NCBI GenBank assembly: GCA_963792585.1
Contig: CAWBWI010000003.1
Coordinates: 62,942-126,941, forward strand
Reading direction: 5' to 3'
Origin: Candidatus Eiseniibacteriota bacterium
GTDB lineage: Bacteria > Eisenbacteria > RBG-16-71-46 > CAIMUX01 > VGJL01
Length of the DNA: 64,000 nt
The position numbers and the translations under genes were made by a program. Below the pieces are notes generated by a model, which was not told the DNA's origin, made no database searches, and saw only the letters and a list, made by a program, of their open reading frames with translations. Below, piece after piece: positions 36,586 through 61,218 of this stretch (position 1 is its first letter; each line of letters begins with the position of its first letter).

Positions 36586-36686
36586 CGCGTTGCCCCCTGC
36601 CCGTCGGCCGCTCGTCTCATCCCGTTGCCCCCCGTCCGTCGGACTCCCGTATCATCGCATCGCCCCTGCACCTGTGACCGCCGGGC

Positions 36687-38197: not shown

Positions 38198-38201
38198 GGC
38201 G

Positions 38202-39449: not shown

Positions 39450-39711
39450 CGACTCGGGTAGTCGGCCAGCCCCACGTCAGGATGCGCGCTGGCTGGTGGG
39501 AGGTCAAGCGAGGAGCGCCACTTGGAGGCGTCTCCCTAGATGGACAATCCTTCACCCGACGTGAGATTGCGCGGGTCTATGAATGGAGTCTCGTCGGGAT
39601 CCGGGTCGAGCGACGCCGGCCCGCTCACCTTGATCCACCTCTGTGCGGCCCGTGGTGATGGTGCGTGCGGCAGACCGTCGATAGGTTCGCCGGATCGCGC
39701 CTCCCGCCACG

Positions 39712-40512
39712 CTACCCCGCCGGCTGCATCGCCCCTTTCTGCACTAGACCTTCGAAGTGGCGCTCGAGGTGGTCGGCGAAGGCAGCGGACTCGATCAGCA
39801 CACCGGCCTCGATGTTCCGCTCCAGCGCCGCCTCGGTGAAGTTCGCCGAAGAGACGAGCGTGGTCGAGTGGTCGACCACGATGCACTTGGCATGGAGGCA
39901 GGCCCGATCGCGCGCACTGAGCGCCAGCGACCGCGGGTCGTAGTAGATCGCAGGCAGCCGTCTGCCCGGCCACTCCTTTTCGCGAAATCTCTCGACGAAG
40001 CGGTCCACGATGTCGGAGTCGAGCGAGGTGTCGGTCGGACGCCGCTCGATGTTGAGGAACATGCGCACGTCCAGATCCGGGTCCTGGTCCATCCGCGCGG
40101 CGAGCGTCTCGAAGACGCGCCACCCCTGGAACACCACGTATCCCGCCAGGAGAACGGTCTTTCGCGCCTTCTGGAACAGCTCACGTACGACGACGACCGT
40201 GTCGCGGCTTGGCGCGCCTTCGACCTCGGGTCCGGTCCAGACGAGATCGATCGTCCGCCGGCCCATGACCTGAGAGCGCGCGCGGACGATCGACCAGACA
40301 AGGAGCACCAACTTCCGCCGGTCCCATCCCTGGTCCGCGAGATCCGTCAGTGCATTCGCGACCGCCTTCACGTCCGGGAACTCTCCGCACGTTCGGAGTA
40401 TGGAGAGCGCGTCGTACGGCGGCGCGAGGCCCCCTCCGTACAGCGCAAACGCGAGCTTGTGCAGGTTTCCGTCGTCCAGCGCCTCGATCACCGGCAGATC
40501 TATGTCTCCCAT
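39712..40512 (-). CDS. drmC: DISARM phospholipase D-like nuclease DrmC
   Basis: IDLVWTGPE, LHAKCIVVD (HKD), SANFT...RNIEAG; coupled to drmB. Confidence 0.92.
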   Translation of the reverse strand: MGDIDLPVIEALDDGNLHKLAFALYGGGLAPPYDALSILRTCGEFPDVKAVANALTDLADQGWDRRKLVLLVWSIVRARSQVMGRRTIDLVWTGPEVEGAPSRDTVVVVRELFQKARKTVLLAGYVVFQGWRVFETLAARMDQDPDLDVRMFLNIERRPTDTSLDSDIVDRFVERFREKEWPGRRLPAIYYDPRSLALSARDRACLHAKCIVVDHSTTLVSSANFTEAALERNIEAGVLIESAAFADHLERHFEGLVQKGAMQPAG

Positions 40513-45300: not shown

Positions 45301-45814
45301 CATGAACCGGCCGTACGGTCAGTGCGACGACGAGACCCCGGCTGCCGGGGATCGGCGTTTCGATCGTACGGGTCGTCGCGGCGGGGAGCGCGAGGTGCAG
45401 GCTCTCGACGCACTGCGTGCGGGTCCAGTCTTGCGGGGCCTTGTCCTCGGGGCCCGTGCGCTGCGCGCGATAGTCTCCCCAGCGGGCGGTCACCTGCAGC
45501 GTCTTCGCCTCGTGCGGGAGCAGGACGCTCAGGCCGATGGAAGATGGCAGATTCGCCCGGCGGGCCGAAGGTGGCTCCGGCGGGACCGCGTCGTCGGCCG
45601 CGCCGGCTTCGGCTTGCAGGTCGAGCTGCTCATCATCGCTCTCGTCCCCGGCGTGCTTCTCGGGCGCGCCCGCTGGGATCAGGAAGCCGGTCAGGTACCA
45701 GCGCGAGGGGGGCTGCGGGAGCGTTTCGGACTCGAGGGGCGATCCGGGGAAAGGGCCGACCAGATCGAGGAGGAGCGCCTCGACTAGCCTTTGACGGACT
45801 TCGATGGACTTCAT
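42329..45814 (-). CDS. drmA: DISARM SF2 helicase DrmA
   Basis: PSRWYLTGFL, FPTGGGKTEAY, RYTLRLLT, QDELHL, ASTAT, ATNMISVGLDI, YIQATSRVGR. Confidence 0.95.
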   Translation of the reverse strand: MKSIEVRQRLVEALLLDLVGPFPGSPLESETLPQPPSRWYLTGFLIPAGAPEKHAGDESDDEQLDLQAEAGAADDAVPPEPPSARRANLPSSIGLSVLLPHEAKTLQVTARWGDYRAQRTGPEDKAPQDWTRTQCVESLHLALPAATTRTIETPIPGSRGLVVALTVRPVHGEGAKVPGSVATGSIPDSALSDSFPAGARSVSIFLVNRRTPADDEVKDEAYAFQAELVVDSPVPFIPRESGAGANSSDWDDRVADLQYRDAREVAVGHGIATESCCDANGTCLSLRTRWIPAAEVERVAPQTIPGVEAGMETLAGIADGEQARRILTNLVSAYRDWIEAQRKSIDGLPTSRREIALHLMKNASIVAGRIERGIELLATDPLALDAFRIANRAMGEAARRRRAMERKCRPGDVDPPEWRSFQLAFILMNLRGIVESVHPEREIVDLLFFPTGGGKTEAYLGLAAFTLILRRLRRPDASSAGVCVLMRYTLRLLTLDQLGRAATLICALERERERAPDRLGPWPFEIGLWVGRAATPNRMGRKGDNDPNTARAKTIRFQNDDRNPSPIPLEECPWCGERFGRNSFQLWPNTDQPTELRVNCLNRDCDFTRGRSLPILGVDEPIYRRLPCFMIATVDKFAAMPWTGPVGGFFGGADRGDSHGFYGPCDPAGSGERLPAPLAPPDLIIQDELHLISGPMGTMVGLYETALDALCSRVGDGGTIRPKIVASTATVRRADRQIRALFDRHSVEVFPPPGPDRRDSFFARTLAPEESPARLYLGIAAQGRTPKVILLRTYLALLGAAQRAWVEGGGEGVPVSTHPGGLNPADPYMTLVGYFNSLRELGGSRRIVEDEVTSRLMRYAERRRVGEEAGLFAGRKIAYDVVELTSRVGTDQVAEARRRLGLTFSEKDRVDVAIATNMISVGLDIARLGLMVVLGQPKTSAEYIQATSRVGRDPARPGLIVTLFNIHRPRDRSHYELFGAYHQSFYRSVEATSVTPFSPRALDRGLAGTLVALARLGHAPMCAPRGAERVVEERSALAFVVEALERRAADQGAGDPARAERLRQRVHERASDLLDAWVRMAQGYRERGVHLQYNEGEGGGAKALLHDFLAAEQEGLGPLERRFRANRSMRDVEPNVNLWLRSLAGAEVEDEGGDGSGEGPA

Positions 45815-46144
45815 GGCGTCGGGCCTCCGGGTCGCGGGATGAGTCGGTTTCCCCGTCGCTTGCGTGCCGCGTCGCTCGCTCAACCGGATGAGACTGTGGG
45901 GTATTTCGGCTTCGCGATCAAGGGGCGGGTGTGGGCGCCGGTAGGAACGTGGAGCACGGAGTGAGCCGTGGCGCCGCGACCCGGGAAATCATCTGCACCA
46001 AGGCGAAGCCACTTTCTGGGCATGCTTCACGGGGTCGGACCAAGGCTGGCCCGAATGGCGACGCCGTTCAGTCCAGCTGGTTCCAGGAATCCCGCCCGGG
46101 ATAGATCGAGTGTGGGAAAAGCCGGCTTTGCGAAAGGCGGTGCG

Positions 46145-46738
46145 CTAGAAAGTGACGCCGAGGCCGACCACTCCGCTGCAACAGTCCCGTGGAGGAACGA
46201 CTGCCAACCACAGCCGCCGACGCTCCGGCCGCGAGGTTTCCGAACTCCTCACGACACCCTCCCCTTCGAGGTCTGCGGATGACCGGTAGTACACCGTTTC
46301 CCAGTCACTCGACGCGTTGCCGACCAAGGCGCCCAACCCCGCGAATAGGGCCGACCAGACCATGGTCCCCGCGTAACACTGGCCGCGGCTTCCACCCGCC
46401 GAAGACAAGTCTTCCTCGCTCGATGCGGTGCATGCCAGCATTCCGATCGCCATGCAGCCCCCGCCTCCGATGCAGGCGCCCTTGGCGGCATTCCCTTCAC
46501 GGACGTCCACCCGGTCGATATCTCGAAGGTCGAGAAACGTCGTCTGTCCACCGACCGAGAGGGACACCGATTCGCCGTTCACCTCCAGATTCCTGCCCTC
46601 GACGGTAAGGGTCCCCTTGAAGACGCGGACCTTGCCTTTCTTGGACACCAGCGTTTGTGCGGACGCAGACGTGCACAGACTCGGGCCGACGATCGCCGCC
46701 ATTGCGATCGCCACGAACAGACATCGCGTTCGAGTCAT
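46145..46738 (-). CDS. Exported hypothetical protein with a glycine-zipper-like hairpin
   Basis: Signal peptide ending SASAQ; GACIGGGG...WSALFAGLGALVG. Confidence 0.7.
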   Translation of the reverse strand: MTRTRCLFVAIAMAAIVGPSLCTSASAQTLVSKKGKVRVFKGTLTVEGRNLEVNGESVSLSVGGQTTFLDLRDIDRVDVREGNAAKGACIGGGGCMAIGMLACTASSEEDLSSAGGSRGQCYAGTMVWSALFAGLGALVGNASSDWETVYYRSSADLEGEGVVRSSETSRPERRRLWLAVVPPRDCCSGVVGLGVTF

Positions 46739-46844: not shown

Positions 46845-47879
46845 TCACGGCAAGATGTAATCATTGAATGAAGATGACTCGAGTTCTCTCCGGAACGACT
46901 GCATCGCCGTCTCCAGCTTACGTGCGTTGTAGGAGGCTACAGAATTGGCCCCTCCGTATATGTTCGCTATGTATAAAGTCCCGGCGAGTATAACACCCAG
47001 CGTGAACGTCGTCGATGATTCCTCCCTCTCCCCGTGGATCGCCAGGGCGGTGGAGGCGCCGACCATCAGCCAGGTGTTGATCGCATCGAATGCACGGCCC
47101 GCATAGAGCTGCCCCCCCCCGGGGACGATGGAAAGGAGCGCGCCCAACGCCACACGCTTCTGCCCAAATGGAGGCGTCACCGAAAGCTCGCGGTCGATCC
47201 GGTCCGCCAGTTGAAAATTTCCGCCACCGGGAAACAGCTCCTTGTAACGGCGCATCGATGTGCGGGCGTCGCTCCACTCCGCGGCGTTCAGTTGCGACCA
47301 GGCGAGTGCGAATGCCCCCCGTTCGGAGAGATCGGGGTCGACGGAACTCATTTGGCGGAAGACGGCCTGCGCCGCATCATGTTCGCCCAGCATGTCCCAG
47401 CACCTGCCTGTGTAGAATTCGCTCGCTTCCCGGAGTCGGCCCGAGGTCGTGACATCCGCATACGCTTCGAATTCCGCCACCGCATCCCCGAAACGTCCCG
47501 CTGCGTACTCGCTGAGCGGGATCATGTAGCCTGCCAGGCTGACGGCGCTCGAATCGGCCCGGAAGAACGCGTGACGTTTGAAAGAGGTGATGGCCCTGTA
47601 GTAGTCCTTCGAGTGAAACAGATGCATCCCAAAGTCGAACTCGGACGGATGGGCGCCGTCGACCGGAGCGGTGGGGGCCGTGGCGATCTCGGACCGACCG
47701 TCGCCCCCGCGCTGCCCCTCGGGTGGGGAGGTCGACGCGATCTCGGCCTGAATGTCCCCCCCGCGTTGCCCCGCAGGTCGGGGAGTTTGGGCAGGACCGG
47801 CGGTAGCCGTGCAGAAGAGCAAGAGGACGAGTTCGAGAACCTTTCTCACGGCGCGAGCGCTCCGCTCGGCCCGGCGCAC
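46845..47879 (-). CDS. Exported TPR protein with a C-terminal TM2-like hydrophobic module
   Basis: YYRAITSFKR and further TPR helices; ALGALLSIVPGGGQLYAGR...ANIYGG. Confidence 0.75.
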   Translation of the reverse strand: MRRAERSARAVRKVLELVLLLFCTATAGPAQTPRPAGQRGGDIQAEIASTSPPEGQRGGDGRSEIATAPTAPVDGAHPSEFDFGMHLFHSKDYYRAITSFKRHAFFRADSSAVSLAGYMIPLSEYAAGRFGDAVAEFEAYADVTTSGRLREASEFYTGRCWDMLGEHDAAQAVFRQMSSVDPDLSERGAFALAWSQLNAAEWSDARTSMRRYKELFPGGGNFQLADRIDRELSVTPPFGQKRVALGALLSIVPGGGQLYAGRAFDAINTWLMVGASTALAIHGEREESSTTFTLGVILAGTLYIANIYGGANSVASYNARKLETAMQSFRRELESSSFNDYILP

Positions 47880-48385
47880 CCGAGCCAGCAGGGAGGATCT
47901 TGCAGATGAACTCGTTTCCCCGAGTCGTCCAGTTCATAGCCGTTGAGGATTGCCGCGGGATGACATCGCATCAACCGATCTCCCGTCATGAGTACGGCCC
48001 GAGGAATCCCGTATCCCCGGAAAGCCCCAAGCCCGTATTCGGAGCATGTGGGTGTGAACGGGCAACCACCCGGATTGAATGCCGTGTTGTAGGGCTTGGA
48101 CAGGATGACCTGGTAGAAGCGGATCGCTGCGACCGCGGCGATCGAAGCAGTGCCCGGCGTGGATTCGACACAGGCTGCGCCGGTGCCTCCGGCCGATTCC
48201 CACTGATGTAGTCCAGCCTGTGCCGTCAACCTCGCCGGCGGGATGGAGTAATCCCACGGGGGCCACTCCGGTTGAGAAGCACCGGCCCCCATGCTCGCGA
48301 AACTCACGCCGAGCGATGACAGAACCACCGCTCCCCAAATCCTCGCCCAGCGGACACGGTCCGGGATTCTCAAGCCGCTAGCCAC
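47846..48385 (-). CDS. YidD-like (membrane insertion efficiency/haemolytic domain) protein with an N-terminal signal or TM segment
   Basis: AIRFYQVILSK...GCPFTPTCSEYG...GDRLMRCHP. The GTG start overlaps the ompA-like stop. Confidence 0.8.
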   Translation of the reverse strand: MASGLRIPDRVRWARIWGAVVLSSLGVSFASMGAGASQPEWPPWDYSIPPARLTAQAGLHQWESAGGTGAACVESTPGTASIAAVAAIRFYQVILSKPYNTAFNPGGCPFTPTCSEYGLGAFRGYGIPRAVLMTGDRLMRCHPAAILNGYELDDSGKRVHLQDPPCWLGCAGPSGALAP

Positions 48386-49928
48386 CGGTGCTGGCCTCGA
48401 ATTGGTAGCCGTCGACCGCTTCCTTTCGAAGCAGATAGCGTGTGCCCTCCACATGCCGTACCGCGTCCTCCGGGTTCAGAGCGCTGATCTCGACACGACG
48501 ATTGGCCTTGCGCGCGTCGTCTGTCTGGCCAACTGCCGCAGGACGCTCTTCCCCGTAGCCGTGAGTCGCGAACTGCTCCCGCCTCAATCCGGAGAACTTG
48601 CCCAGTAGGTACTGCACAACGGATTCGGCGCGCTGTTCACTAAGGATCCGATTCGCTTCGGGAGTGCCCCGGTCGTCACAGTGCCCATCAATCCTGAAGT
48701 TGATTTCCGGAAGTCTGCTCAACGCCTCTCCCAGCGAGTCGAGGCGTGCAGCCGAATCTGGCAATAGTCTAGCCTCTCCCGTTTCGAACAGGATTCGCCG
48801 TTCCTGGAGCACCCGGCGCTCCAGGAGCCATTTGATAATATCGGGGTCCTCCACCGGACAGCCGTGCCCGTCCACGACGTAGCGGACATTCGTCGTGTCA
48901 CAATCGTCCTCGGCATCAGGAACGCCATCATAGTCCGCGTCGCCAGGGACGATGGGAATGCCGTCCGGCCCGACCATCAGGCGATACAGAGAGATCGTGA
49001 ACGGTTGCGCGTCAATGGAGTTCGGCTTTCCATCCCCATCGGAATCGAGGGTCCTTCCGTAGTAGTCAACCTCGTATCCAAGTGGAGTGTGCGGCTCCAG
49101 ATCTCTGCTGTCCGGCACCCCGTCACCGTCAGAGTCCACATAGTGGCTGGGAAGGCGGCTGAAGACCGCGGTCAGCGCGTTGCGCGTCGTCTGCTGGTCC
49201 GATCCAAGGTAGTCGAACGGTCGCCCACGCGGGACCTTCAGGGTGTGAGCGAACTCCGAATGAACGGCGCCAGTTTGCGGCCGCGTCGCGCGCCAGGCGA
49301 AGGAGATTCGGTCATGTGAGGTGCTGTCCGGGACCCGGGATATCCGGACCATCAGCGATAGCAGCGGAATCGAGTCCGCTCTACCGTTGAGTTCCTCTGG
49401 CGACCGGAGCAAGTAATACCCATTCCTGGCCAGCTTCAGGCGGGAGGTCGCGAAGGCTCTCTCTTCCAGCTCCTCCATCAGTGCGCTATCCGTGATCCCC
49501 GCCCCGGCGGCGTCGAATTGCCAGCTTACCAGGCAATTCTCGCAGACTCGAAGCGAGTCGCGCGCCGCAGGCGAATCGGATAAGCGCGCAGCTAGGCCGA
49601 GAACCCACATCGTATAACCCTCGTGAAGTGGGTCGTCATGGCCCATGATCGCGTTAACAATGATGTTTCCGCCGCAGACCCGCGCCTCGAGCGCCGTCTG
49701 TTCATAGATGGAGTGCGCGAGCTGGTTCTGGCGGCGAAAGGCGTGGACAACCCCGAGGATGACATAGGGCGGAGCTTGGCCCGGCTCGAAATATCGAATG
49801 CGGCCGGCCGAGATCGGGATGGACTCTCCGTCCGATGCAGCGACCCAGTTGAAGAGGACGATCAGAAGGAGCGGAGCGAGCCCAATCGTCCCTCGGAACG
49901 CTCGCGATTCGTGCGATCTCGCCATCAT
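48378..49928 (-). CDS. OmpA-family protein with TSP3-like Ca-binding repeats and a YbjQ-like N-domain
   Basis: DSDGDGVPDSRD, DSDGDGKPNSID, DADYDGVPDAEDDC; ILFETG...IDGHCDDRG...N..LSEQRA...GYGEERP...NRRVEI. Confidence 0.9.
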   Translation of the reverse strand: MMARSHESRAFRGTIGLAPLLLIVLFNWVAASDGESIPISAGRIRYFEPGQAPPYVILGVVHAFRRQNQLAHSIYEQTALEARVCGGNIIVNAIMGHDDPLHEGYTMWVLGLAARLSDSPAARDSLRVCENCLVSWQFDAAGAGITDSALMEELEERAFATSRLKLARNGYYLLRSPEELNGRADSIPLLSLMVRISRVPDSTSHDRISFAWRATRPQTGAVHSEFAHTLKVPRGRPFDYLGSDQQTTRNALTAVFSRLPSHYVDSDGDGVPDSRDLEPHTPLGYEVDYYGRTLDSDGDGKPNSIDAQPFTISLYRLMVGPDGIPIVPGDADYDGVPDAEDDCDTTNVRYVVDGHGCPVEDPDIIKWLLERRVLQERRILFETGEARLLPDSAARLDSLGEALSRLPEINFRIDGHCDDRGTPEANRILSEQRAESVVQYLLGKFSGLRREQFATHGYGEERPAAVGQTDDARKANRRVEISALNPEDAVRHVEGTRYLLRKEAVDGYQFEASTGG

Positions 49929-49962: not shown

Positions 49963-52900
49963 TCATTCCACCGTCGCGACGAACGCCCCCCAGAAGTACG
50001 GGTGATGCGTCATACCTTGCGACCGCCGGTCGCGCAGCGTTCGCAATGACACCTCCCGCACGGCTTCCGCAGCGTCGAGGTTCGCCTCGAGCCTTCTGGA
50101 GAACAGGTCCTGCATCCACCGTGCGGTCGCGTCGTCCGCAACAGACCACAGGGTCATGATGAGATTGCGGACTCCGGCCACCTGAAACGCGCGCCGGAGG
50201 CCGATCACTCCCTCACCGGCTTGTACCTGGCCCAAGCCCGTTCCGCAGGCGGATAATACTGCCAGGTCCACGCTGCGCAAGTCGAGTCCGGCGACTTCCT
50301 CTGCTGTCAAGACGCCGTCGTCCGCGGAGCTGGCAGCGCTCGCTCGAAGATTCGCGCCCGCGAAGGCCAGCCCGGACAGGAGGAGAGGGCTCTCGGCAAC
50401 CAGGCTTCCGACCGTGAGTTCGTCGCGTTCGGCCCATCCACGGCGCGCGGGCTGCACGGAGCACTCGGAGCCGAGAAAGAAGCCGTGGGTGGCAACATGC
50501 AGGACGGCGCGACCGGCGGCCTCGGCCCGAAAGCGCCGTTCGCTGGCTTCGGCGCCCGAGAGCTGAAGGACCGGTCCCTGTCCTTGGGCCCGCCACAGCC
50601 GGACGATCGCCTCCTCTTCGAGTGCGGTTCCCTCGAGTGGTTCGAACTTCAGCGCTCTGAACTGCCCGCATGGAATCCCACGGTGCGCGGACGGCGCCGG
50701 CATCTCAGGGGACTTCGCAGGCGCAGTCGAGTACGCAGGAGCTCCGACGGTCAAGAGCCCATCGCCTTGGCTCTTCGCCCCTGCAAGCTGGGTCACGTTG
50801 CGCTCCGCTGCGAGCGTGAGCAGGAGCGGAGTGTCCTCGATCAAGAAACCACCGCCGTCGTTCGGCAGCGCGTCGAAGTTCACCAGGCACAGCGCTCCGT
50901 CGGGGACGAGGAAGACACGATCAGCGACATCCGACGCCGGAAAGACGCGATCCCAGACGATCCGGCGCAAGGCCAGTCCAGCCCCAGCGCACTCCCGCTC
51001 CGCTGTCTCGCGGGATCCATTCTCCGGGTTCCTGCCCGCCTGGTCCCGCCACTTCGACACGAGCGCGTCGATCTCTGCGGCACTGCCCAAGGGCACCAGA
51101 CGAAGATCTCGCGTGTCTGAAATTGACGACAAAGGCGGCATAGTACGGCTTGCCGTCCTCCGGGTGATCTCCCCCGGATTGCGTTCGCTCCAGACGATTG
51201 TACTGAACCCACGCAATGAGGACCGATCGTCCCGGAAGCGCTTTCAGGACCTCCGATAGACCGACTCTTGCTCGCTCCGTCGCTTCGTTGAATTCAGAGC
51301 TTCGGGCGGCGAGCGCTCGCTCCGCGGCCTCTTTCTCGAGACGTGCCGCCTGGAGACGCCGCTTGAAGTCGGGGAGCGGCTCCCCTTCGCTCCGACCTCG
51401 AACCGCAAGGTAGGCCAGATGATCACTGGCGCCCGCCAAGCGGTCTGCAAGGGCGAGCACCTCGGGTTCGTGGGTGGTCACGGTGAAGCGGCGCCGGAAT
51501 GCCATCTCTTCCAGAACAGCGGCCCGTGAGCGAATGACCAGATCCCACGCTCGTTCCCAGTCTCCCCGGGCTTCGCTCCGCCCTGCCGCGGTCAAGACAA
51601 TGTCTGTCCCGTGGATACGATCCGCCGCGAAGTGCAACGCCTCCCGCTCGGACACTCCGCAGACGATCAGCTCGAAGTGCTGCCGGCCGAGGCGCTCGGC
51701 TTCCTCCGCCTCCTCGATCGCTGCCGGAAGGTTCCGTTCCTCGAGAGACAGCGTGGCGAGATTGTGATAATCGAGGGCCAGAGCCGGCGCCTCCGCCCCC
51801 AGCGCGTTGCGATGGATGTCGATCGCGACCTCGTACTGGGCACGCGCCCCGGCACGATCGCCCATCGCCTTCAGCGCGTTGCCCAGACCCAGCCGAGTGG
51901 CCGCAACATCGGGGTGATCCGGCCCCAGCGATCTTTCGAGGATCGCGAGCGCCTGCTCGTAGAGACTTCTGGCTTCGGGGTAGCGTCCCCTGGCGTTTGC
52001 CAGGCTGGCGAGATTCCTCTGGATGAAGGCGGTGCGAGGATGATCGGCCCCGCAGACCCGGCCGGTGATCGCCAGCGCCTCCTGCAACCTGTTGAACGCC
52101 GCCTCTTCGTTTCCCAGAGACCACTCGAGCAGGCCCAGGCTGCTCACGATCGCCGCCTGGGATTCACTTTCGCGTCCGCTCTTCGAGACCAGCTCCAGCG
52201 CGTGCTCCAGATCGGAGCGCGCGCCTCCGGGGTCGCCCAGCCGCCGCTTCACGATGCCGAGCTCATGGAATGCGTCGCAGAGTCGCGGGTCTTTGTCTCC
52301 ATCCACGCTCTCGAGGATTTCCATTGCGCGCTCTGCCCCTGCGCGCGCCTGCGCGAGATCCCCCCGCTCCCGGGCCAGCGTGGCGAGGCGGAGGATCGGC
52401 TCCGCCACAAGGGGGTTGGCGTCGCCCAGGTTCGCGATGAGGTCGTCGCGAGCCCTCTCGTACTGAAGCTTCGCTGAGTCGGACTGTTGCGCCCCTTGTA
52501 GGGTCGCCGCGAATTCCAATCGAGTGATCGCGGTCTCGCTGGAGCGCGCCCCCCAGACTCCTGGGCTCGCCGCCAACGCCCGCCGGGCATAGCCCAGGGC
52601 CTCGGCGTACCGCGCAAGGTCCAGTGCGATGGACGCGAGCCTCCGAAGGCAGTTGGTCTGCGCGGCAGCGTCCGGGCGCGCCGGCGATCCGTGGACGCGT
52701 AGGGCTTCCAGGAACGTCGAGAGCGCTTCCGCGTTGCGGAAGGCGGATCGTTGGGCATCTCCGATTGCCATGATGCAGTTAGCGACGCGGGGATCCGACG
52801 GACCGGCGGACTCGATGAAGAGATCCCTCGCCTCGGCGGCCCGCGCGACCGCGGAACCGCTCTCGCCGGCGGCCAGGTGTACCCGAGCCCGCTCGTATAT

Positions 52901-53773
52901 GCCCTCCGCGAGCGGGATCCCCCGTCGCCCTGGCTTCTCGAGGATTGTGATCGCGCGGTCGAGCATGCGGGCCGCCCCGGCCAGGTTCCCGCACGTCGAA
53001 CGCCAGGTCCCATCACGAACCAGAACATCCGCCACGCGGGGGGAATCCGGGCCGTCGTATCGCTCGAAGATCCTCCGCGCCCGATCATAGTCGGCCGCGA
53101 TGCCGAGCGTGTCGCCGGACGCCTCCCTCGCCGCATTGAGATTCACAATCACGACCGCCACCTCGGCGGTCTCCACCCCGATCGCCTTCCGGGCCTCCAG
53201 ATCGAGCTCGAATTCGTGCTTTGCCTCCGCGTAACGGCGGCTCTGGAAATATGTCGTCGCCAGATTGTGATGCGCGCGCTCTCTCTCGACATGATTGGGA
53301 GGATTGTGGGACTCGATGATCCGGAGTGCCGCTTCAAAGTGTTCGATCGCGGAGTCCACGTGATTCCGGTATCTCTCAACGATTCCTGCATATTGGTGCG
53401 CATCCGCCAGGAACGCGGACCGTGGCCCAAGGACAGACTTGCTCATTCGAAGGAGTGTCTCAACGTGGGAGTCGAGCATGGGATCGTCGGTTCGGGACTG
53501 CTGAAGTTCGGCCGCCACGAGCACCCTCGTCGCCACCAAGAAGTCGATGGAATCAGCCCGGTTCTCGAGTCGCGCGGTCGCCAAGAACCGGGTCGCGCGT
53601 TGTTCGGCTTCGGCGACCTTGCCACGCTCGAGAAGTTCCTGGAGAGCGCGGGCGCTGTCAACCGGCGGGGCCGCCCCCACAATGTTCGCGGTCAGCGTCA
53701 GGAACCATGGTAACCAACATGCATCTCTCCGCACTGCGCCCAGGACCTTTTCCATTTGCAGTGGACCGAGCAT
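49963..53773 (-). CDS. Exported TPR-repeat + CHAT (caspase-like) protease, split by one extra base near 51121
   Basis: Kinesin-light-chain-type TPRs (LG.DHPD.A); CHAT dyad HVATHG and VLSACGTG; HPYFWGAF. Removing one T joins YAAFVVN to SDTRDLRLVPLG. Confidence 0.92.
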
Positions 53774-53876
53774 CTGGCTATCCTTAGCACGTTTCTATGA
53801 TGAGTACCTCATAGAATGATCGACATCTCGGCTTCACAGACAATAGGATCCAAATGCACGGGGAGGAGGCGCGAGG

Positions 53877-54707
53877 ATGACGCAGAGAAGCGCGGGCGCG
53901 TCGCGTCCGGGCAGATCCGCCATCACGGCCGTCGTCGGTGCTTGCGCGTTGTTTGGCGCGCTGGTGCTCGCACCTGAGACCGCGGTAGGCCAGCAAGCGC
54001 ACCAGGAGTTCCCGGACGGCGTCTGTTTTCCCGTGAACGGGTCGGGCTACATCGTGTCCGCGTCCAGCAAGTCGCGCACCGACAGAGTCCCCATCGGCCC
54101 CTTCAGTGCCGTATTCGAGGGAGACAGCCTCGTGATTGAAGAGGGCACGGTTACCTTCATCGATTTCCGCGATCGCCAGCGTTCCGTCTTCGGAAAGGAC
54201 ACCAGACACAGAATCCCGCACGTGGTTGACCCGAATGCGCCCACACGGTGGGAGGAGATGAAGCAGCGGCTGACGGAGATCTTCCGGGACCGTCATGGCT
54301 ACGAAACCAGCGCGTCGCGTGAGGGAGCGTTGAAGGTCTGGCCGGACGACGGGGTGGAGTTCGCTCCCGATGTGCCGATCATCCTCACCTGGTCGGCGGA
54401 TACCACTGCATCTGCGATCCAGGTCCGAACCGAGAAGGGTCAGTCCGAGATTCCCATCTCGGAGTCTGTCGCGACGAGACGAGAGATCGCCTGGACCCCA
54501 AGCGAGGTGCCTTCCGGGTCGGTTCAGTGGTCGTTGCTGGATGCCGATGGCGAACCGCTTCTCACGGGTCGGTTCAATGTTCTCACGGCGAAGCAGGCAG
54601 ATGAAAAGCGCGAAATGTACCGCGCTCAGGCAGCCGGTGACGGCTCGATGTCGTCGGAACTAGGGGCGGTCTTGCGCGCGCTCGCCGACAGATCGTATCT
54701 CTGGTGA
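53877..54707 (+). CDS. Exported hypothetical protein, weakly DUF928-like
   Basis: Signal peptide; beta-rich N-domain; SREG.LKVWP...IILTW...WSLLD Ig-like segment; GTGA-coupled to CHASE2. Confidence 0.6.
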   Translation: MTQRSAGASRPGRSAITAVVGACALFGALVLAPETAVGQQAHQEFPDGVCFPVNGSGYIVSASSKSRTDRVPIGPFSAVFEGDSLVIEEGTVTFIDFRDRQRSVFGKDTRHRIPHVVDPNAPTRWEEMKQRLTEIFRDRHGYETSASREGALKVWPDDGVEFAPDVPIILTWSADTTASAIQVRTEKGQSEIPISESVATRREIAWTPSEVPSGSVQWSLLDADGEPLLTGRFNVLTAKQADEKREMYRAQAAGDGSMSSELGAVLRALADRSYLW

Positions 54708-56002
54708 CCGCAGCGGGTCGTCCGCCATCTCGATCGGTTCTCCGGGCGGCGAGAACGCTGCACACCACAACGGACAAGATCTATGTCTTCAGGCGACTGA
54801 TCCTCACGTCGTTCCTCGTGACCCTGGCGGTCTTCGGTGCCCGCAAGGCCCATCTGCTCGACGGCGTAGAGAACCGGTGGCTCGACCTGATGGCGAACGC
54901 CGATCGGCCGAGCTTCGACGTCCCCATCGTCGTCGTAGGGATCAGCGACAAGGATTACTACGACCCGAGTCTGTTCGGCGGCACGTCACCGCTCGAGCCG
55001 GGCGCACTGGGGCGCATGGTGTCGACCGTCCTCGCCCACAAACCGCGTGGAGTGGTCCTGGACGTGCTGATTCACCCCAGCCCTGGAGAGTCGCCTCAGC
55101 GCTCCATCGCTCGAGAAAACCTGTACCGGCTGCTCCTCGATGCCTCCGAATTTCTGCCCATTGTCGTGGTCCGCGATCCGGCATCGGAGGCTCTTGAACG
55201 CAGGATCGAAGAACCGGGTTGGCGCACCTTCGATGCGCTGACCAAGAATCCCCACCTGACCTGCGCGAGTGCCGGCGTCCGGCGGTCACGGGGCTACGTG
55301 CGGGCGATTCCCCTACGGTACCAAGATGATGATCCGGCAGTCGGGAACCTCCCCACAGTCCTCGGCGCCACGGTTACCGCCATGGGGCTCGAATCCGAGC
55401 ACTCGAGTTCCTGGTTGTTCCGTCGTCATGAGAACGACCCGGTGAAGCCGCGGCGCATTCGGTTCTCCAAATGCTTCCTCGAGGCGGGAAGCTCCGTGGA
55501 CCCGCACTACGTGGATTCGGCGTCGCTTCTTTCCCAGGCAGCGATTCCCGGTGCACGCTCCTTACTCAGGGACCAGATCGTCCTGGTGGGGGGCACATTC
55601 CACGCGGGCCGGGACGTGCTTCCCACGGTGGTCGGGGACATGGCGGGTGTCTATGTGTGGGCGGAAGCAATCGCGTCATGGATCCGAGGCGATGCCTTAC
55701 GGGAACCGCTCGAGCTGATCTCATTCTTACTCGAGTTCTTCATCGGCGTCTTGGCGGGGTACTTGCTCGTGCGTTTGGGCCCGTTCTTTGGATTCGTCTC
55801 TTCTCTCGCGGTCGTCGGTCCCCTGACGATCTTCTTTTCCCTCCTGACGTTCGGTGATCGCGTGCAGTTCGTGAACTTCTTACCATCATTCCTCGGGGTC
55901 TATTTGCACTATCAGTACTATCAGATAGAGGTTCACTCGGAGATCCGCAGGCTGAAGGCGGAGATCGCCAGGCTCTCGCCGCCGGTTTCCCCTTCGGAGT
56001 AG
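54704..56002 (+). CDS. Stand-alone CHASE2 sensor protein (no cytoplasmic output domain)
   Basis: N-terminal TM; PIVVVGISD, GVVLDVL, LRDQIVLVGGT...D...T..G.MAGVYVWAEAI; three TMs; only about 25 residues follow. Confidence 0.88.
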   Translation: MTAAGRPPSRSVLRAARTLHTTTDKIYVFRRLILTSFLVTLAVFGARKAHLLDGVENRWLDLMANADRPSFDVPIVVVGISDKDYYDPSLFGGTSPLEPGALGRMVSTVLAHKPRGVVLDVLIHPSPGESPQRSIARENLYRLLLDASEFLPIVVVRDPASEALERRIEEPGWRTFDALTKNPHLTCASAGVRRSRGYVRAIPLRYQDDDPAVGNLPTVLGATVTAMGLESEHSSSWLFRRHENDPVKPRRIRFSKCFLEAGSSVDPHYVDSASLLSQAAIPGARSLLRDQIVLVGGTFHAGRDVLPTVVGDMAGVYVWAEAIASWIRGDALREPLELISFLLEFFIGVLAGYLLVRLGPFFGFVSSLAVVGPLTIFFSLLTFGDRVQFVNFLPSFLGVYLHYQYYQIEVHSEIRRLKAEIARLSPPVSPSE

Positions 56003-56033
56003 GTCGTCGTGGCAGATCCGTCTGGAGGCTCGC

Positions 56034-56345
56034 ATGAAACTCGTCCTCTGTATTTTCGCGCTATTCGTGCTCTTAGCAGCAATCAGCTGCGCACACCAAC
56101 CCAAGGTTCCGATGCCGGGAGTCGACGCCGCGCCGGACCAATGGAAGGAGTACTACAAGGACCAGTTCCGGGCCTTCGGTGACAAGGTGACACCGCCCGA
56201 CGCACAAGCTTCGCTAGACCAGCGCGTCGCCTATGACGACGCAAAGCGAGCATTCCACCACGCGAAGATGGTCGGCGCGGTCGTCGGTGGCTGCGCGCTC
56301 CTGATCTCAGTAGCGATCTTCCTGAGTACGATTAGCCAGCTCTAG
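56034..56345 (+). CDS. Small lipoprotein with a C-terminal TM helix
   Basis: GGAGG RBS; lipobox LAAISC. Confidence 0.7.
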   Translation: MKLVLCIFALFVLLAAISCAHQPKVPMPGVDAAPDQWKEYYKDQFRAFGDKVTPPDAQASLDQRVAYDDAKRAFHHAKMVGAVVGGCALLISVAIFLSTISQL

Positions 56346-56724: not shown

Positions 56725-58608
56725 ATGAACCGCTCGCCGCGCCATGGAATCGTGCTCGCGTCCGTGCTCTTGATGATTCTGATCGCGACTGCCGCCGCAC
56801 TTCCTGTGGGCCAGGCGCTTGCCGCCCCCGACCCGACTCGCTTTGGGGACAGCCCGCCGCACCGGATCATCGACAACGACGCGGTGATCGACGCCAACGA
56901 TGTGCGGATGCTGGTCACCAATCGAGGGACTTTCGGCCGGGATCTTGAAGGACCGGGCGGACCCGCGGGCACGTTCTACCCGGCGGACACGGACCGAACG
57001 TGCATGTACACGGCGGGAGTCTGGGTCGGCGGCAAGGTCGGCCAGGAGATCCGCGTCACGGTCGCGGAATACGACCTGGAATACGGGCCCGGTGTGATTC
57101 TCCCTGGCGGCGGTTGGTCCGATCCGTCGCTGCCCGAGTACCGGACCTACAAGCTGACGCCGCTCTCCGGTCCCGGTGATCCAGACTACGACGAGTGGCC
57201 CGTCGGGGACGGCGCGCCACTCGATCGAGACGGCCATCCCCTCGTCGTGGGCGACCAGACGCTCTGGTCGGTCTTCAATGATGCAAACCCGAATGGCCAC
57301 ACGAACGACGCCGGCTTCACCACCCCGATCGGCGTCGAGGTAAGCCAGCTCACTTACGCGTTCGCGCTCCCCCATCCTCTGGACAGGGTGATCTTCGTGG
57401 ACTACCGGCTGATCCACAAAGGGCTGCAGGCGCTCAACCCGGCGTTCGTCGGAATCTATACCGACATCGACCTAGGGAATGGACGCGACGACCTGGCGGG
57501 GTGCGATTCGCTCCTCGAGGCCGGCTTCACCATGAACGGCGATGACTTCGATGATGTGTACGAAGATCGGCCGCCGACCACCGGGTTCGTCGTCCTGAAG
57601 GGACCGGCCCATCTCGCCCATCCGCTCTATGCGGCGATCGACTACGTCAACGGCCAGGATCCGACTTCGGCCGACGCATCGTACAATCTGCTGCGGGGAT
57701 TGAATACGGACGGCACCCCGATGATCGACCCGTACACCAATCGGCCGACTCGCTTCTGGCACGCCGGGAACTTCGATACCGGCGAAGGCTGGCTGGACTA
57801 TTGGGTTCAAGATAAGCGGAACCTCCTCAGCATGGGTCCGTTCGCCTTCTCGCCTGGCCAGGTTGAGTCGGTTCGCGTCGCGTTCGTCGTTGGCGACAAG
57901 GACAACTGGATCGGCAGCACGGTCGACATGCTCGACGTGAGCCGGTGCGTGAAGCGCCTCAACGAGAAGGGCGCGTTCCTGCAGCCGTCGCGCTGGGCGA
58001 TCGCCGGGTTCTATCCCCAGCCGTTTCATCCGATCGAGGATGCTCCGGGACGGATCTTCATCCTCGCCCCCGAGGCGGGGCGGGTCCTGGTGCGCGTGAA
58101 CGACATGCAGAATCAGCTCGTTCGCTCCTTCCCCGAGCAGGACGTGGCCGCCGGGATCAACCCGCTCGAGTGGGACGGCAGGAACGACGGGGGCGCGATC
58201 GTCGCGTCGGGGACGTATCGGTTCGACCTGCGCGTCGTGAAGCCGGTGCTGTCGACGCGGCACCTCATCATCGATTCGGAAGAGATGAGGGTCATGGGAG
58301 GTCGCGATGTGGCGGCCGTCTCGGCTCCGGGCTTGCCTGCTGCCGGCGGGCTGAAGGTGCCGGGGATCGCGCGCGGCGGCGTGTGGATCAGGTTCGACGG
58401 GCCTAGTCCCGGTCGAGCTGCGCAGGCGGTCACGATCTATGACCTGGGCGGCCGCGTCATCAGCCGACTCGATGTTCCGGTCGGCGAACACGGCGCGTGG
58501 TGGGATGCGCGCGATTCGGCGGGGCGAAGGCTGCCGGCGGGCATGTACTTCGTGCGGGCGGAGGGATCTGAGGCAATGGATGCGCGGAGGACGTTACTCC
58601 TGAGGTGA
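56725..58608 (+). CDS. Secreted protein with two C-terminal FlgD/T9SS-like domains
   Basis: Signal peptide; IDANDVRMLVTNRG...GVWVGG; LEWDGRNDGGAIVASGTY and WWDARDSAGRRLPAGMYFVR. Confidence 0.8.
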   Translation: MNRSPRHGIVLASVLLMILIATAAALPVGQALAAPDPTRFGDSPPHRIIDNDAVIDANDVRMLVTNRGTFGRDLEGPGGPAGTFYPADTDRTCMYTAGVWVGGKVGQEIRVTVAEYDLEYGPGVILPGGGWSDPSLPEYRTYKLTPLSGPGDPDYDEWPVGDGAPLDRDGHPLVVGDQTLWSVFNDANPNGHTNDAGFTTPIGVEVSQLTYAFALPHPLDRVIFVDYRLIHKGLQALNPAFVGIYTDIDLGNGRDDLAGCDSLLEAGFTMNGDDFDDVYEDRPPTTGFVVLKGPAHLAHPLYAAIDYVNGQDPTSADASYNLLRGLNTDGTPMIDPYTNRPTRFWHAGNFDTGEGWLDYWVQDKRNLLSMGPFAFSPGQVESVRVAFVVGDKDNWIGSTVDMLDVSRCVKRLNEKGAFLQPSRWAIAGFYPQPFHPIEDAPGRIFILAPEAGRVLVRVNDMQNQLVRSFPEQDVAAGINPLEWDGRNDGGAIVASGTYRFDLRVVKPVLSTRHLIIDSEEMRVMGGRDVAAVSAPGLPAAGGLKVPGIARGGVWIRFDGPSPGRAAQAVTIYDLGGRVISRLDVPVGEHGAWWDARDSAGRRLPAGMYFVRAEGSEAMDARRTLLLR

Positions 58609-58805: not shown

Positions 58806-58870
58806 CGAACGGTCCCTATGGCTCGAACGGTCCCTATGGCTCGAACGGTCCCTACGGCTCGAACGGCCCC
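58806..58870. repeat. 18-bp tandem repeat copying the last codons and stop of the HNH gene
   Basis: cgaacggtcccta(t/c)ggct x3 plus a partial copy; the reverse strand reads GPFEP* repeatedly. Confidence 0.9.
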
Positions 58871-61218
58871 CTCACTCGCCGGTTGCCCCGGTAGACCAGC
58901 AGCGGCGTCCCGTCCCTGCGCCTCCCCAGCTCGTAGCGCAGCGCGTGCGGCGCCGTCCCTCCGATCTTCACGTGGCCCCTGTGCACGCCATGCTGGTGAT
59001 GACCATGACAGAGGACGGCGAGGTTGCCCGGATCGTTGCCTCCACCTTGCGAGCGGGGCTTGATGTGGTGCGTCTCGAGCTGATCGCGCCTCGTGCAGCC
59101 AGGGACGACGCACCGGTACCGGTCGCGTTCCAGGATCTTCACCCGCACCGGGACCCGCTCCGGATCCTGTTGCTCCCAGATCTCCTTCACCTCGGAGAAG
59201 AGCATCGCCATCGCTGCCCATTCGGGCATCCGCGGGATCCGGCCCGAGAGCCTCCCGGTGGGTTTCTCGCGCCGGTATGCCCACAGAACTTGCTTCAGAT
59301 CGATGTAGGTCTGTCTCGGGAGCGGGAAGCGCGTCCATGTCTCCGCCCGCTGATAGGCTAACGTTTGCCGGTCCGCTTCGCCGGTCTCCGGGACCTCTTC
59401 CCAATGACGGAGCGCGAGGAGCTGGACCATCGTCTCCAGACGATCCATCAAGATGGGGTTCTCGGCCGGGTCGGTCGATCCGCCGGACGGCAGCGGAGGG
59501 ATGCCGCGCAGCTGCAGCGACTCCTCGATCGCCTCCCGGTCTCCGCCAAGCGCGGCGACAAGGGCTTCCTCGATGTCCCCCTTCGACAGCGGCCGCAGCG
59601 CATGCCTGCCGAGGTCGCACGTGCGCATGAGCATCAGCAGGCGGTACTCCCGCTGGAACTGCCGCCAGGTGGTCTCTCGCGCGCGCTCGATGAACTCATC
59701 GACATCCTCGGTGTGCTTGAGCTGCCGGATCAGGTGCGCCTGCATCGTCGAGATGCGTCCCGTCGCGAAGGCGCGTTCCATCGCCGCGCTGCCCTCGAAC
59801 ATCAGCGACTCGGCCACCCGGTTGCGCGCCGAGCGCTCGGAGATCTTCAGCAGGTCCTCGACCATCCGGGCCACGGAGGAATAGCCGAGCAGCTCCACCG
59901 CCCCGACACGGCGGAGGTCGCGGATCAGGTGCGCGAGAAGCACCTTCCCGGGGGCGCGGAGCAGTTGGATCTGGCGCAGGATCAGGAGCGCTTCCTCCGG
60001 TGACCCCGGCTCCTCGGTTCGATCGATCTGCTCGACGTCCTCGAGGTACTCGGCCACGAGGGCGAGGGTCTGTCTGGCATGCGCGATCGCCTCGGGACGG
60101 ACGGGGATGGCCACCGGCGGACGTCTCTCGATGACCGGACCCAGCGCGGGCCGCCTCGGAGGCGGGCCGTCCCCGCCTATCCCCGGCCAGGCGACCTCGG
60201 CAAGCATCGCCTCGATGCACTCGTGGATGGGCGCCTCGTGGCCGAGGACCATGCGGGTGTGCTCCATCATCTCGTCGAAGGAGACCTGGAAACCGAGGGG
60301 GTGCTTGAAGGCGAAGGGGACCATCTCGGGGTCGTCGCAGTGTTCATCCACGAAAATCGAATCGGGCACCGGGGCCTCATCCCCATCGCGTTCCCATAGC
60401 TCCTTTTCCAGCGCCGCCAAAGCTCCGGCCGACATCGACTCCTCATCCTCCGTGCAGGCGATTTCCCCCCTCTGCCCCGCCTCCGCCCGCCTGCGGGCGC
60501 GCTCTTCTTCGCTTCGCGCCCGATAGCGGAGCTGGTCCACGGGGACCGCGCTAATCCTCTCGATGAATGCTCGAATCAACTCGTCAGGAACGGGAAGCGC
60601 CTCGATGAGCCGGGCGATGTAGGGGAGCTGGCAGGCGCTGATCCCGCCACCGAGGAAGGCCCGTTCGAGCTCGGGGTGCTTCGCGAGCACGCGGTGCAAG
60701 GCAAGGCGGGATCGGGTCGTGCGCGGCCGCAGGCCGAGCGTCTCGAGGGCGAGGCTGCTGATGGAGGAGAAACCGCAGCGCTGCACGCGCCCTCCCTCGG
60801 AGAGCCAGGCGAGCATGCGCGCTTGCGAGCGGACGAATCGTGCCTCGGCGTGACGCGTGGAGAGGGTCGCCGCAGTGAGCGAGCGAACCAGCGTGGCGCT
60901 GGCGAGGGTGGGTCCAGCGGGCTGCGTAGCGGGCCGAGTAGCAGGCTCCTGAACGGGCTGGTGAACAGGCGGGAAAGAGGGCGATGCGATAGAAGTCGAT
61001 GGGGCGGCAGCGAGCGCGGAGTCCTCGGCGCGCGGCGATGCGATGGAAGTCGATGAGACGCCATCCCCCGCGGACTCCTCGGCGTGCGACGATGCGTCCC
61101 CGGAGCGCGCAGCATCGTCCGCCCCGTAACGAGGAGTGTCCTCGCGACAGGTCCACGCGTGCGGGAACCCGCGCTCCACGGGGCTTTCCGGTGGGTATGT
61201 AAGGATGGTGGCGGCCAT
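58852..61218 (-). CDS. Large HNH endonuclease-signature protein with a DUF222/13E12-like helical region
   Basis: CVVPGC...LETHHIKPRSQGGGNDPGNLAVLCHGHH at the C-terminus of a 788-aa ORF. Confidence 0.88.
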   Translation of the reverse strand: MAATILTYPPESPVERGFPHAWTCREDTPRYGADDAARSGDASSHAEESAGDGVSSTSIASPRAEDSALAAAPSTSIASPSFPPVHQPVQEPATRPATQPAGPTLASATLVRSLTAATLSTRHAEARFVRSQARMLAWLSEGGRVQRCGFSSISSLALETLGLRPRTTRSRLALHRVLAKHPELERAFLGGGISACQLPYIARLIEALPVPDELIRAFIERISAVPVDQLRYRARSEEERARRRAEAGQRGEIACTEDEESMSAGALAALEKELWERDGDEAPVPDSIFVDEHCDDPEMVPFAFKHPLGFQVSFDEMMEHTRMVLGHEAPIHECIEAMLAEVAWPGIGGDGPPPRRPALGPVIERRPPVAIPVRPEAIAHARQTLALVAEYLEDVEQIDRTEEPGSPEEALLILRQIQLLRAPGKVLLAHLIRDLRRVGAVELLGYSSVARMVEDLLKISERSARNRVAESLMFEGSAAMERAFATGRISTMQAHLIRQLKHTEDVDEFIERARETTWRQFQREYRLLMLMRTCDLGRHALRPLSKGDIEEALVAALGGDREAIEESLQLRGIPPLPSGGSTDPAENPILMDRLETMVQLLALRHWEEVPETGEADRQTLAYQRAETWTRFPLPRQTYIDLKQVLWAYRREKPTGRLSGRIPRMPEWAAMAMLFSEVKEIWEQQDPERVPVRVKILERDRYRCVVPGCTRRDQLETHHIKPRSQGGGNDPGNLAVLCHGHHQHGVHRGHVKIGGTAPHALRYELGRRRDGTPLLVYRGNRRVRGPFEP
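60981..61096. repeat. 54-bp coding duplication (about 2.2 copies) in the HNH N-terminal region
   Basis: gcgatgcgat(a/g)gaagtcgatg...gcgga(g/c)tcctcggcg at 60981 and 61035 (STSIASP twice). Confidence 0.75.

Follow-up and report, generated by a model that had tools for sequence, protein, structure and literature searches.

We describe here a group of four genes in a 64,000-nucleotide stretch of DNA from a Candidatus Eiseniibacteriota bacterium (contig CAWBWI010000003.1, positions 62,942 to 126,941; here termed the window), coding for a predicted exported TPR-CHAT protein with a caspase-like protease domain, an OmpA-like protein, a membrane protein with a CHASE2 domain and no output domain, and a predicted exported protein of 276 amino acids (aa), here termed p276. 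We lean toward the view that these genes constitute a conserved, self-contained cell-envelope module of Eisenbacteria-like bacteria rather than a cluster of pseudogenes, made up of a p276/CHASE2 adaptor and an exported protease. The observations behind this view are the gene content, the predicted export signals, the catalytic dyad of the CHAT domain, the co-inheritance of the genes, and the absence of an output domain. The features of the locus, in window coordinates, are as follows; related loci and genomes carry L and G numbers, and G000 is the genome of the window.

48378-49928, minus strand: OmpA-like gene, 516 aa, with PF00691
49963-53773, minus strand: TPR-CHAT coding region (Pfam TPR_12, 4e-57; CHAT, 7e-58)
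51122..53773, minus strand: 5' part of TPR-CHAT, with predicted signal peptide and TPR array, 884 codons to the frame change
51118..51122, minus strand: frame-change site (+1) of TPR-CHAT, placed by tblastn and alignment with orthologues
49963..51120, minus strand: 3' part of TPR-CHAT, with the CHAT caspase-like domain, 385 codons plus stop
53774..53876, no strand: divergent intergenic region of 103 bp, with a leader, an inverted repeat, and a sigma-70-like site
53877..54707, plus strand: p276, predicted exported 276-aa protein of an unnamed family, without a Pfam, NCBIfam, or PADLOC match
54704..56002, plus strand: stand-alone CHASE2 membrane protein, 432 aa (PF05226, 3.2e-19)
56034..56345, plus strand: lp103, 103 aa, with a lipoprotein-type signal from sequence; orthologues in L001, L004, L005, and L009
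47846-48454, minus strand: YidD-domain protein (Pfam YidD, 7e-16)
46845-47879, minus strand: TPR protein, 344 aa, with weak TPR matches
46145-46738, minus strand: unknown 197-aa protein, found only in loci with the gene order of the window (arrangement A, below)

Co-inheritance of the module genes

The genes for the OmpA-like, TPR-CHAT, p276, and CHASE2-only proteins occur together in 9/9 related loci, which come from metagenome contigs and metagenome-assembled genomes (MAGs; one named Candidatus Eisenbacteria), in several orders and orientations. The grouping proposed in a preliminary description of the region, made from the sequence alone, thus recurs elsewhere, both in these loci and in a common phyletic pattern (see below). 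In the window, L001, L003/L005, L004, and L009 (arrangement A), the genes for the 197-aa protein, the 344-aa TPR protein, the YidD-like protein, the OmpA-like protein, and CHAT lie on one strand, divergent from those for p276, CHASE2, and lp103. The exceptions are that lp103, kept in the arrangement A relatives with a varying position, lies elsewhere in L001, and that L003 ends inside the CHASE2 gene. In L006-L008, the OmpA-like gene converges on CHAT, which is divergent from p276-CHASE2, and in L002, p276, CHASE2, and the OmpA-like gene follow each other on one strand and converge on CHAT. The YidD-like, TPR, and 197-aa genes are present in L001, L003/L005, L004, and L009 and absent from L002 and L006-L008; because they are confined to arrangement A, we do not count them as part of the core. 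The four other genes stay together through these rearrangements and thus constitute a functional unit.

The OmpA-like gene lies next to CHAT in 9/9 related loci, the rearranged ones included, and in the window its start is 34 bp downstream of the CHAT stop. The limits of 49963 to 56345 first given for the module therefore enclose the genes assigned to it correctly but leave out a gene, at 48378-49928, that belongs to it in every relative. Its product starts with a predicted signal peptide and an N-terminal domain of unknown type, continues with Asp-rich thrombospondin-type-3-like repeats, and ends in an OmpA domain (PF00691, 64.8 bits; cut-off, 27.2; E = 9.4e-18). It also matches the NCBIfam model for a PA1041-type anchor with an E value of 2.7e-31, a score that lies below the model's equivalog cut-off.

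We then surveyed 61 genomes, namely G000 and 60 others of the same family, order, and class. Adjacent genes for p276 and a CHASE2-only protein are found in G000, G019, and G023, p276 alone on a small contig of a fragmented assembly in G021, and a CHASE2 fragment alone in G003. The remaining 56/61 genomes have no CHASE2-only orthologue and no strong p276 match, 3 of them giving weak p276 matches. Beyond these close relatives, the gene following distant members of the p276 family (only about 25 to 33% identical to p276 of the window) codes for a CHASE2-only protein of 414 to 436 aa. The pair is preceded in L021 by genes for a VWA protein and a 1,391-aa TPR-CHAT protein (CHAT, 4.6e-62), is divergent in L022 from the gene for a 493-aa trypsin-like protease, and is preceded in L023/L024 by one for a 1,421-aa CARDB/beta-helix protein. 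L020 is a short contig that ends within the CHASE2 gene downstream of p276, and L025 is too short to show the gene after p276. Since the two genes are found together wherever the sequence following p276 can be read, the evolutionary core of the module is the pair of p276 and the stand-alone CHASE2 protein. An exported protease lies beside this pair in most loci, its type varying from locus to locus.

Another reading is a system for the processing of surface proteins, comparable to LapD/LapG. The membrane protein would hold back or set free the periplasmic cysteine protease, which would trim a surface protein or one anchored in the envelope. The substrate would be the OmpA-like anchor here and the VWA, CARDB, or beta-helix giants elsewhere, with an effect on attachment or envelope architecture. 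This would be consistent with the giant exported VWA, CARDB, and beta-helix proteins flanking the pair in L021 and L023/L024, the calcium-binding-type Asp repeats of the OmpA-like partner, and the predicted export of all components. We nevertheless consider it doubtful, given that the CHASE2 protein has no cyclic di-GMP or other cytoplasmic input domain, that no LapG-type (DUF920) protease or LapA-type adhesin is present, and that the giant proteins are not conserved partners.

The p276 and CHASE2 proteins

The 432-aa module protein is the sole CHASE2 protein of its genome and matches PF05226 over profile positions 2 to 254 of 257 (69.9 bits; gathering score, 26.3; E = 3.2e-19). Its AlphaFold2 (AF2) model (predicted local distance difference test score [pLDDT], 84) places long helices at residues 23-48, 337-358, 360-383, and 390-424 around an alpha/beta domain at residues 53-330. 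The predicted layout is hence a first transmembrane (TM) helix, a periplasmic alpha/beta domain, three further TM helices, and a cytoplasmic helical segment of about 30 aa. As had been noted from the sequence at the outset, the protein has neither a kinase nor a cyclase domain, and a GGDEF domain is likewise absent; only about 30 residues follow TM4, and PF05226 is its only domain. The same holds for 29 homologues of 396 to 485 aa, none of which has a second Pfam domain, and the next gene codes for the 103-aa lipoprotein-like lp103. As all 29 homologues are CHASE2-only at this length, the output-less protein is the native stand-alone form and not a truncated remnant of a longer receptor. A Foldseek search of the PDB with the model recovered no significant match (best E = 0.07). 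The idea of a pseudo-caspase partner is unsupported, with no caspase-like match among the Foldseek results. A tblastn search of plasmids with the CHASE2 protein retrieved nothing.

In the AF2 model, the last TM helix runs on into the cytoplasmic stub of about 30 residues, which is strongly conserved (LHYQ..E.H.EIR.L) and among the best-conserved parts of the protein, with Y406 and Q407 invariant and H402, E409, and H411 near-invariant. This conservation speaks for a reading of the protein as a coreceptor, in which the output-less CHASE2 protein would be a true transmembrane sensor. Its TM bundle and conserved cytoplasmic helix would relay the signal to a partner encoded elsewhere, such as a kinase or a cyclase. 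Here, p276 would be the periplasmic subunit that binds or presents the ligand, and the protease would only make or destroy that ligand. CHASE2 domains normally feed cytoplasmic outputs (PMC3501461, PMC13001267), and in L001 the module is closely followed by genes for a histidine kinase and a response regulator. However, the other 8 loci have no conserved signaling gene beside the module, the stub has only about 30 residues, and the genome has no second CHASE2 protein for pairing. We therefore hold a coreceptor role to be possible but not probable.

The CHASE2 gene has a GTG start that overlaps the stop codon of p276 (GTGA), and the two are translationally coupled. The p276 family is rare: a word-based search retrieved 8 proteins and a hidden Markov model (HMM) scan retrieved 54 from 1.84 billion cluster representatives. 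No Pfam or NCBIfam match was found for p276 even at E = 10, nor any PADLOC match, and 36 diverse members of the family gave no convincing Pfam match. The preliminary description had called p276 DUF928-like, a relationship that does not stand up to profile comparison. None of the 36 members (0/36) matches DUF928 (PF06051), and comparison by hhalign of the p276 family profile with a DUF928 profile, built by aligning 30 of 118 collected relatives of a gene from Nostoc punctiforme plasmid pNPUN01, gave a probability of 0.3% (E = 0.23). In the same kind of search, the true DUF928 protein of pNPUN01 scores 214 bits. We accordingly reject the assignment of p276 to DUF928, of which it is at most a positional analogue, and p276 is best described as a new family of predicted exported proteins without a database name. 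Long multirepeat proteins with weak matches to the C-terminal domain of p276 yielded nothing informative in Pfam scans.

As modeled by AF2 (pLDDT, 81), p276 has two beta-sandwich domains joined by a helix, with a helical hairpin at the C terminus. The order along the chain is a signal peptide, the N-terminal beta-sandwich, the helix, a flexible linker, the C-terminal immunoglobulin (Ig)-like beta-sandwich, and the hairpin, which ends in ADRSYLW. Foldseek searches with this model recovered only generic Ig and fibronectin type III repeats. The only internal low-confidence loop comprises residues 143-147, immediately preceding Arg148, and this position is Arg in 35/36 members and Lys in 1/36, within a G-[AS]-[VT]-R-G motif that is followed by variable-length indels. 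DUF928 has a GA.SRG motif ahead of its beta-rich domain that resembles the linker motif of p276. Being short and of low complexity, this common [GA][AGS]x-R-G motif is a weak lead and not evidence of a relationship.

A bolder reading is that p276 is a pro-ligand, which would be cut by the exported protease at the flexible linker with residue 148, releasing a fragment that would act as the CHASE2 ligand, with the signal passing through the stub or the TM bundle. The CHAT protease here, and the trypsin-like protease in L022, would cut p276 at the basic residue of the G-[AS]-[VT]-R-G motif. Trypsin-like enzymes cut after basic residues, which fits this proposal. Separase, a TPR-CHAT enzyme, cuts after Arg (PMC11506125), which fits as well. 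However, craspases cut after Leu or Met, and the specificity of a CHAT domain therefore cannot be assumed; our literature check found no case of Arg specificity among HetF-type CHAT proteases, separase and craspase being the only enzymes cited. On balance, we judge the pro-ligand proposal unlikely. If true, protease-generated self-peptides would be the general CHASE2 signal, including for the DUF928-linked receptors of cyanobacteria.

The TPR-CHAT protease and its frame break

The CHAT domain scores 196.8 bits with PF12770 (gathering score, 24; E = 7.1e-58; profile positions 22 to 286 of 289), and the 5' part of the gene matches Pfam TPR_12 (E = 4.4e-57). Both residues of the dyad, the His in VLHVATHGFF and the Cys in LSACGTG, are invariant in alignments with 7 to 9 orthologues, in agreement with the intact dyad first reported. 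The N terminus, MLGPLQMEKVLGAVRRDACWLPWFLTLTANIVGA with cleavage predicted before APP, combines basic residues, a hydrophobic stretch of 15 to 20 residues, and an AxA-like small-residue end, after which the first conserved helix begins. The feature is kept in 8 orthologues, although its sequence itself is not conserved, and the pattern is that predicted for a Sec signal peptide, as had been suspected. Sequence searches of the PDB with the CHAT open reading frame (ORF), a whole-protein profile, and a CHAT-only profile gave no matches or TPR matches only.

The single frame of about 1,270 aa initially attributed to this gene is not what the assembly contains. Instead, an ORF of 950 aa (50921-53773) overlaps one of 417 aa (49963-51216) in another frame, and a product of 1,269 aa is obtained only by reading through an extra base. 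By tblastn and alignment with intact orthologues, the frame change falls between ...YYAAFVVN and DTRDLRLVPLG..., where the minus-strand DNA reads gtc gtc aat ttc a gac acg. The orthologues have FVV-xxx-TRDxRLV in frame, and the window sequence gives FVVN(F/S)DTRDLRLV only with one base skipped. The skip yields FVVNSDTRD, matches the orthologue spacing, and gives a product of 884 + 385 = 1,269 aa. A single additional base would explain the shift, its simplest location being the T3 run at 51120-51122 (minus strand). In other assemblies, 7 orthologues have single frames of about 1,260 to 1,340 aa (4 of them called as genes, 1,274 to 1,313 aa) and align with both ORFs of the window, and intact orthologues span the 5' part in one frame by tblastn. 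Both halves are 63 to 72% identical to the orthologues, the 3' part being 72% identical to that of L004, with no other stop or lesion.

To place this break against the indel rate of the assembly, we took ORFs of 200 aa or more in 178 kb of the same-family genome G004 and compared them by tblastn with this genome, which yielded a sample of 62 ORFs with an orthologue of at least 55% identity. Of these orthologue-checked genes, 19/62 (about 31%) are split between frames. The 30 frame changes counted in their 92 kb of coding sequence amount to about 1 per 3 kb; the reverse comparison, run as a control, found 3/72 genes split. At this rate, about 1.2 frame changes would be expected by error alone in a 3.8-kb gene. 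Genome G000 is a MAG of 7 contigs and 5.4 Mb with an estimated completeness of 84%, a profile that fits a long-read assembly with residual indels. Given the single-frame orthologues, the high indel rate of the assembly, and the lack of a second lesion, the break is most likely, with rather high confidence, an assembly artefact. A programmed +1 frameshift is rejected, since every orthologue reads in frame.

Were the frameshift real, the CHAT protease would be dead in this strain and the module a decaying remnant in the course of being lost. The assembly as given does carry the break, the module is patchily distributed among relatives (a strong p276 match in 4/61 genomes), and G003 keeps only a CHASE2 fragment. 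Against this stand the nature of the lesion, a single indel flanked on both sides by sequence of high identity to the orthologues, the number of frame changes expected from the assembly error rate, and the intactness of the other module genes. Decay thus appears improbable, and we retain the interpretation of a functional envelope module.

Several further observations concern frame breaks and CHAT genes in these assemblies. Other examples of split genes in G000 are at C1:243703-246310, C1:1117198-1120447, and C3:142233-144222, and the orthologue of an L004 gene at C3:142-144 kb has 4 frame changes. The CHASE2 gene of L001 is split between frames (L001:10807-12019), as are p276 and CHASE2 in L009 (L009:10001-11921), which lies on a 3.6-Mb contig; both loci carry long-read-style contig names, and the splits are probably assembly errors of the same kind. 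G000 has seven further CHAT-domain genes, at C2:151220, C6:1013481, C6:1026548, C1:1310502, C3:1280804, C3:422060, and C1:1661827, of which the one at C1:1310502 has no more than 374 aa in its open frame and may likewise have been broken by a frameshift. A seven-state HMM based on G+C at third codon positions was dropped as a means of counting frameshifts; it returned similar rates on control loci and missed the known CHAT break. The indel background calls for caution with any finding of a pseudogene, truncation, or missing residue in this genome.

Proposed function, genomic context, and known systems

All parts of the module are predicted to be extracytoplasmic or membrane embedded, with signal peptides beginning p276, the OmpA-like protein, and the partner proteins of the distant loci. 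We propose that p276 and the CHASE2 protein form an adaptor or sensor complex at the outer face of the inner membrane, which would control or localize the exported protease or be processed by it, and that the OmpA-like protein would tie the system to peptidoglycan. The protease might act on p276 (most plausibly at the linker with Arg148), on the OmpA-like anchor, or on further proteins of the envelope. We infer that signaling proceeds by proteolysis, the output being cleavage within the envelope and not a second messenger. The pair recruits different exported partners by lineage: in the window and L021 the partner is TPR-CHAT, in L022 it is a trypsin-like protease, and in L023/L024 it is the CARDB/beta-helix giant.

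Certain points weigh against this interpretation. Adjacency of genes indicates a functional link and not a mechanism, and the mechanism itself is one that we infer. The conserved stub hints at a cytoplasmic partner and at real transmembrane signaling rather than a purely periplasmic role. L023/L024 have no recognizable protease beside the pair, and the protease is therefore not obligatory. The break in CHAT may be a true frameshift in this strain. The signal peptides were called by eye and from hydrophobicity, not with SignalP.

CHASE2 was defined in 2003, and the module may help reveal what CHASE2 sensors detect. It is a minimal protease-CHASE2 association, with no output domain, an obligate coupled partner, and a protease interchangeable between lineages, and for these reasons it would make a clean test system for protein binding by CHASE2 and for a proteolytic signal.

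The region is high in G+C (about 62 to 69%). On its plus strand, p276, CHASE2, and lp103 follow each other as an operon, and the gap to the divergent CHAT gene, given earlier as about 100 bp, measures 103 bp (53774-53876). The third gene of the operon agrees with the lipoprotein gene noted at first inspection: lp103 has a lipobox-like N terminus (LLAAIS followed by Cys) and a C-terminal hydrophobic helix, with no Pfam match even at E = 10. The CHAT start codon is immediately preceded by a leader of about 22 nucleotides (53774-53797; minus strand, GAAACGTGCTAAGGATAGCCAG-ATG), which is kept in the orthologous loci L001, L003/L005, L004, and L009 and more weakly in L008; the remaining intergenic sequence is not conserved. 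In the window, a TAG stop just upstream of the leader marks it as noncoding, and it may be a translation initiation or regulatory element. The AT-rich patch of the divergent promoter region contains a perfect 8-bp inverted repeat, TTCTATGA-N8-TCATAGAA (53793-53816), which was not found in the orthologous loci and is specific to the window; this repeat may be an operator peculiar to the strain or may have arisen by chance. One sigma-70-like site (53820-53849) is directed at the plus-strand operon.

Downstream of the module are genes for a 627-aa protein with FlgD_ig-type Ig domains (56725-58608, plus strand) and a 788-aa protein that carries an HNH nuclease motif at its C terminus (58852-61218, minus strand), neither of which is kept beside the module in relatives. 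On the other side, in the distant relative L002, genes of a DUF6754 membrane complex directly adjoin the CHAT gene (L002:17998-20831). In the window (35902-45883), a DISARM drmABC block (about 39.7-45.9 kb) and three extra genes separate the DUF6754 genes from the module. As L002 has the DUF6754 genes beside the module with no DISARM between them, this arrangement suggests that DISARM was inserted into an older neighborhood.

The position of the module between the DISARM drmABC genes and the HNH endonuclease gene raises the question of an anti-phage or abortive-infection system with an envelope-located caspase-like protease. CHAT proteases do act in type III-E CRISPR systems and in a DdvA-controlled defense island (PMC11506125). 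However, PADLOC returned no specific match, only a generic TPR model (1e-7) and ZorB/MotB models on the OmpA domain. The flanks of the module in relatives are housekeeping or unrelated genes, and the L002 neighborhood described above makes DISARM look like a later arrival. An exported protease, moreover, cannot reach phage targets in the cytoplasm. A defense role is thus unlikely, and a system of this particular kind seems to us highly improbable.

Among characterized proteins, the anti-sigma factor DdvA of Myxococcus xanthus contains a periplasmic TPR-CHAT module, which is proposed to act as a site-1 protease (PMC11506125). Like the protein described here, it combines TPR-CHAT and a His/Cys dyad in the periplasm, and it is proposed to be a signal-triggered protease acting from envelope to cytoplasm (PMC11506125). 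In contrast, DdvA unites this module with a TM helix and a zinc-binding anti-sigma domain in the cytoplasm, all in one polypeptide, and is paired with an extracytoplasmic function sigma factor. The CHAT protein described here has nothing at its N terminus but a signal peptide of the cleavable type, about 35 aa long, its membrane partner is the CHASE2 protein, and no sigma factor domain was found among the module proteins scanned. Another parallel is offered by the metacaspase-CHASE2 fusion of Trichodesmium (PMC3501461) and the EACC2-caspase-CHASE2 systems (PMC8195603), which likewise tie a caspase-fold protease to a CHASE2 domain flanked by 1 + 3 TM helices, the topology described for CHASE2 in PMC3501461. 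In the fusions, however, the protease is N terminal to TM1 and predicted to be cytoplasmic, whereas here the protease is encoded by a gene of its own and is exported, so that it and the CHASE2 domain face the same side of the membrane.

With regard to the signal, the only CHASE2 systems with a described one that our literature search found are the adenylate cyclases CyaD1, CyaD2, and CyaK of Sinorhizobium meliloti, which respond to a protein signal via the outer membrane protein NsrA (PMC13001267). They resemble the module in that a signal of protein nature is perceived through an envelope partner. They are set apart by their cyclase output, the lack of an associated protease, and the nature of the partner, NsrA being a beta-barrel outer membrane protein and not an OmpA-like peptidoglycan binder. 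The same search found no study of stand-alone CHASE2 proteins, whether or not paired with an exported protease, and no paper dealing with the p276 family.

The clustering of CHAT, DUF928, and CHASE2 genes in cyanobacteria, mentioned in the preliminary description, is real in at least the one case checked, that of pNPUN01, with the order CHAT-WD40-CHAT-trypco2-CHASE2 (857 aa)-DUF928 (276 aa). A CHASE2/DUF928/WD40 cluster in Nostoc is mentioned in passing in PMC5587647. On the Tolypothrix sp. PCC 7712 plasmid NZ_CP063787.1 (L028, 175855-185626), the gene after that for an 819-aa CHASE2 protein codes for a "hypothetical protein" of 222 aa that matches DUF928 weakly (E = 1.8e-4), with genes for a DUF1822 protein and a TPR-CHAT protein nearby, a constellation that matches the EACC2-caspase-CHASE2/DUF1822 systems of PMC8195603. 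The pNPUN01 cluster and the module have in common a CHAT gene beside genes for a CHASE2 membrane protein and a small exported protein of about 270 aa. Relative to pNPUN01, however, the small partner here is not a DUF928 homologue and is encoded upstream rather than downstream of CHASE2, and the CHASE2 protein has 432 aa with no extra domain, as opposed to 857 aa in Nostoc. The module further adds an OmpA-like anchor and occurs in an Eisenbacteria-like lineage rather than in Cyanobacteria. It is thus a variant of the little-studied association of caspase or CHAT proteases with CHASE2, and it differs from the CHAT-DUF928-CHASE2 type of cluster by its nonhomologous small partner, the absence of an output domain, and its OmpA-like anchor.

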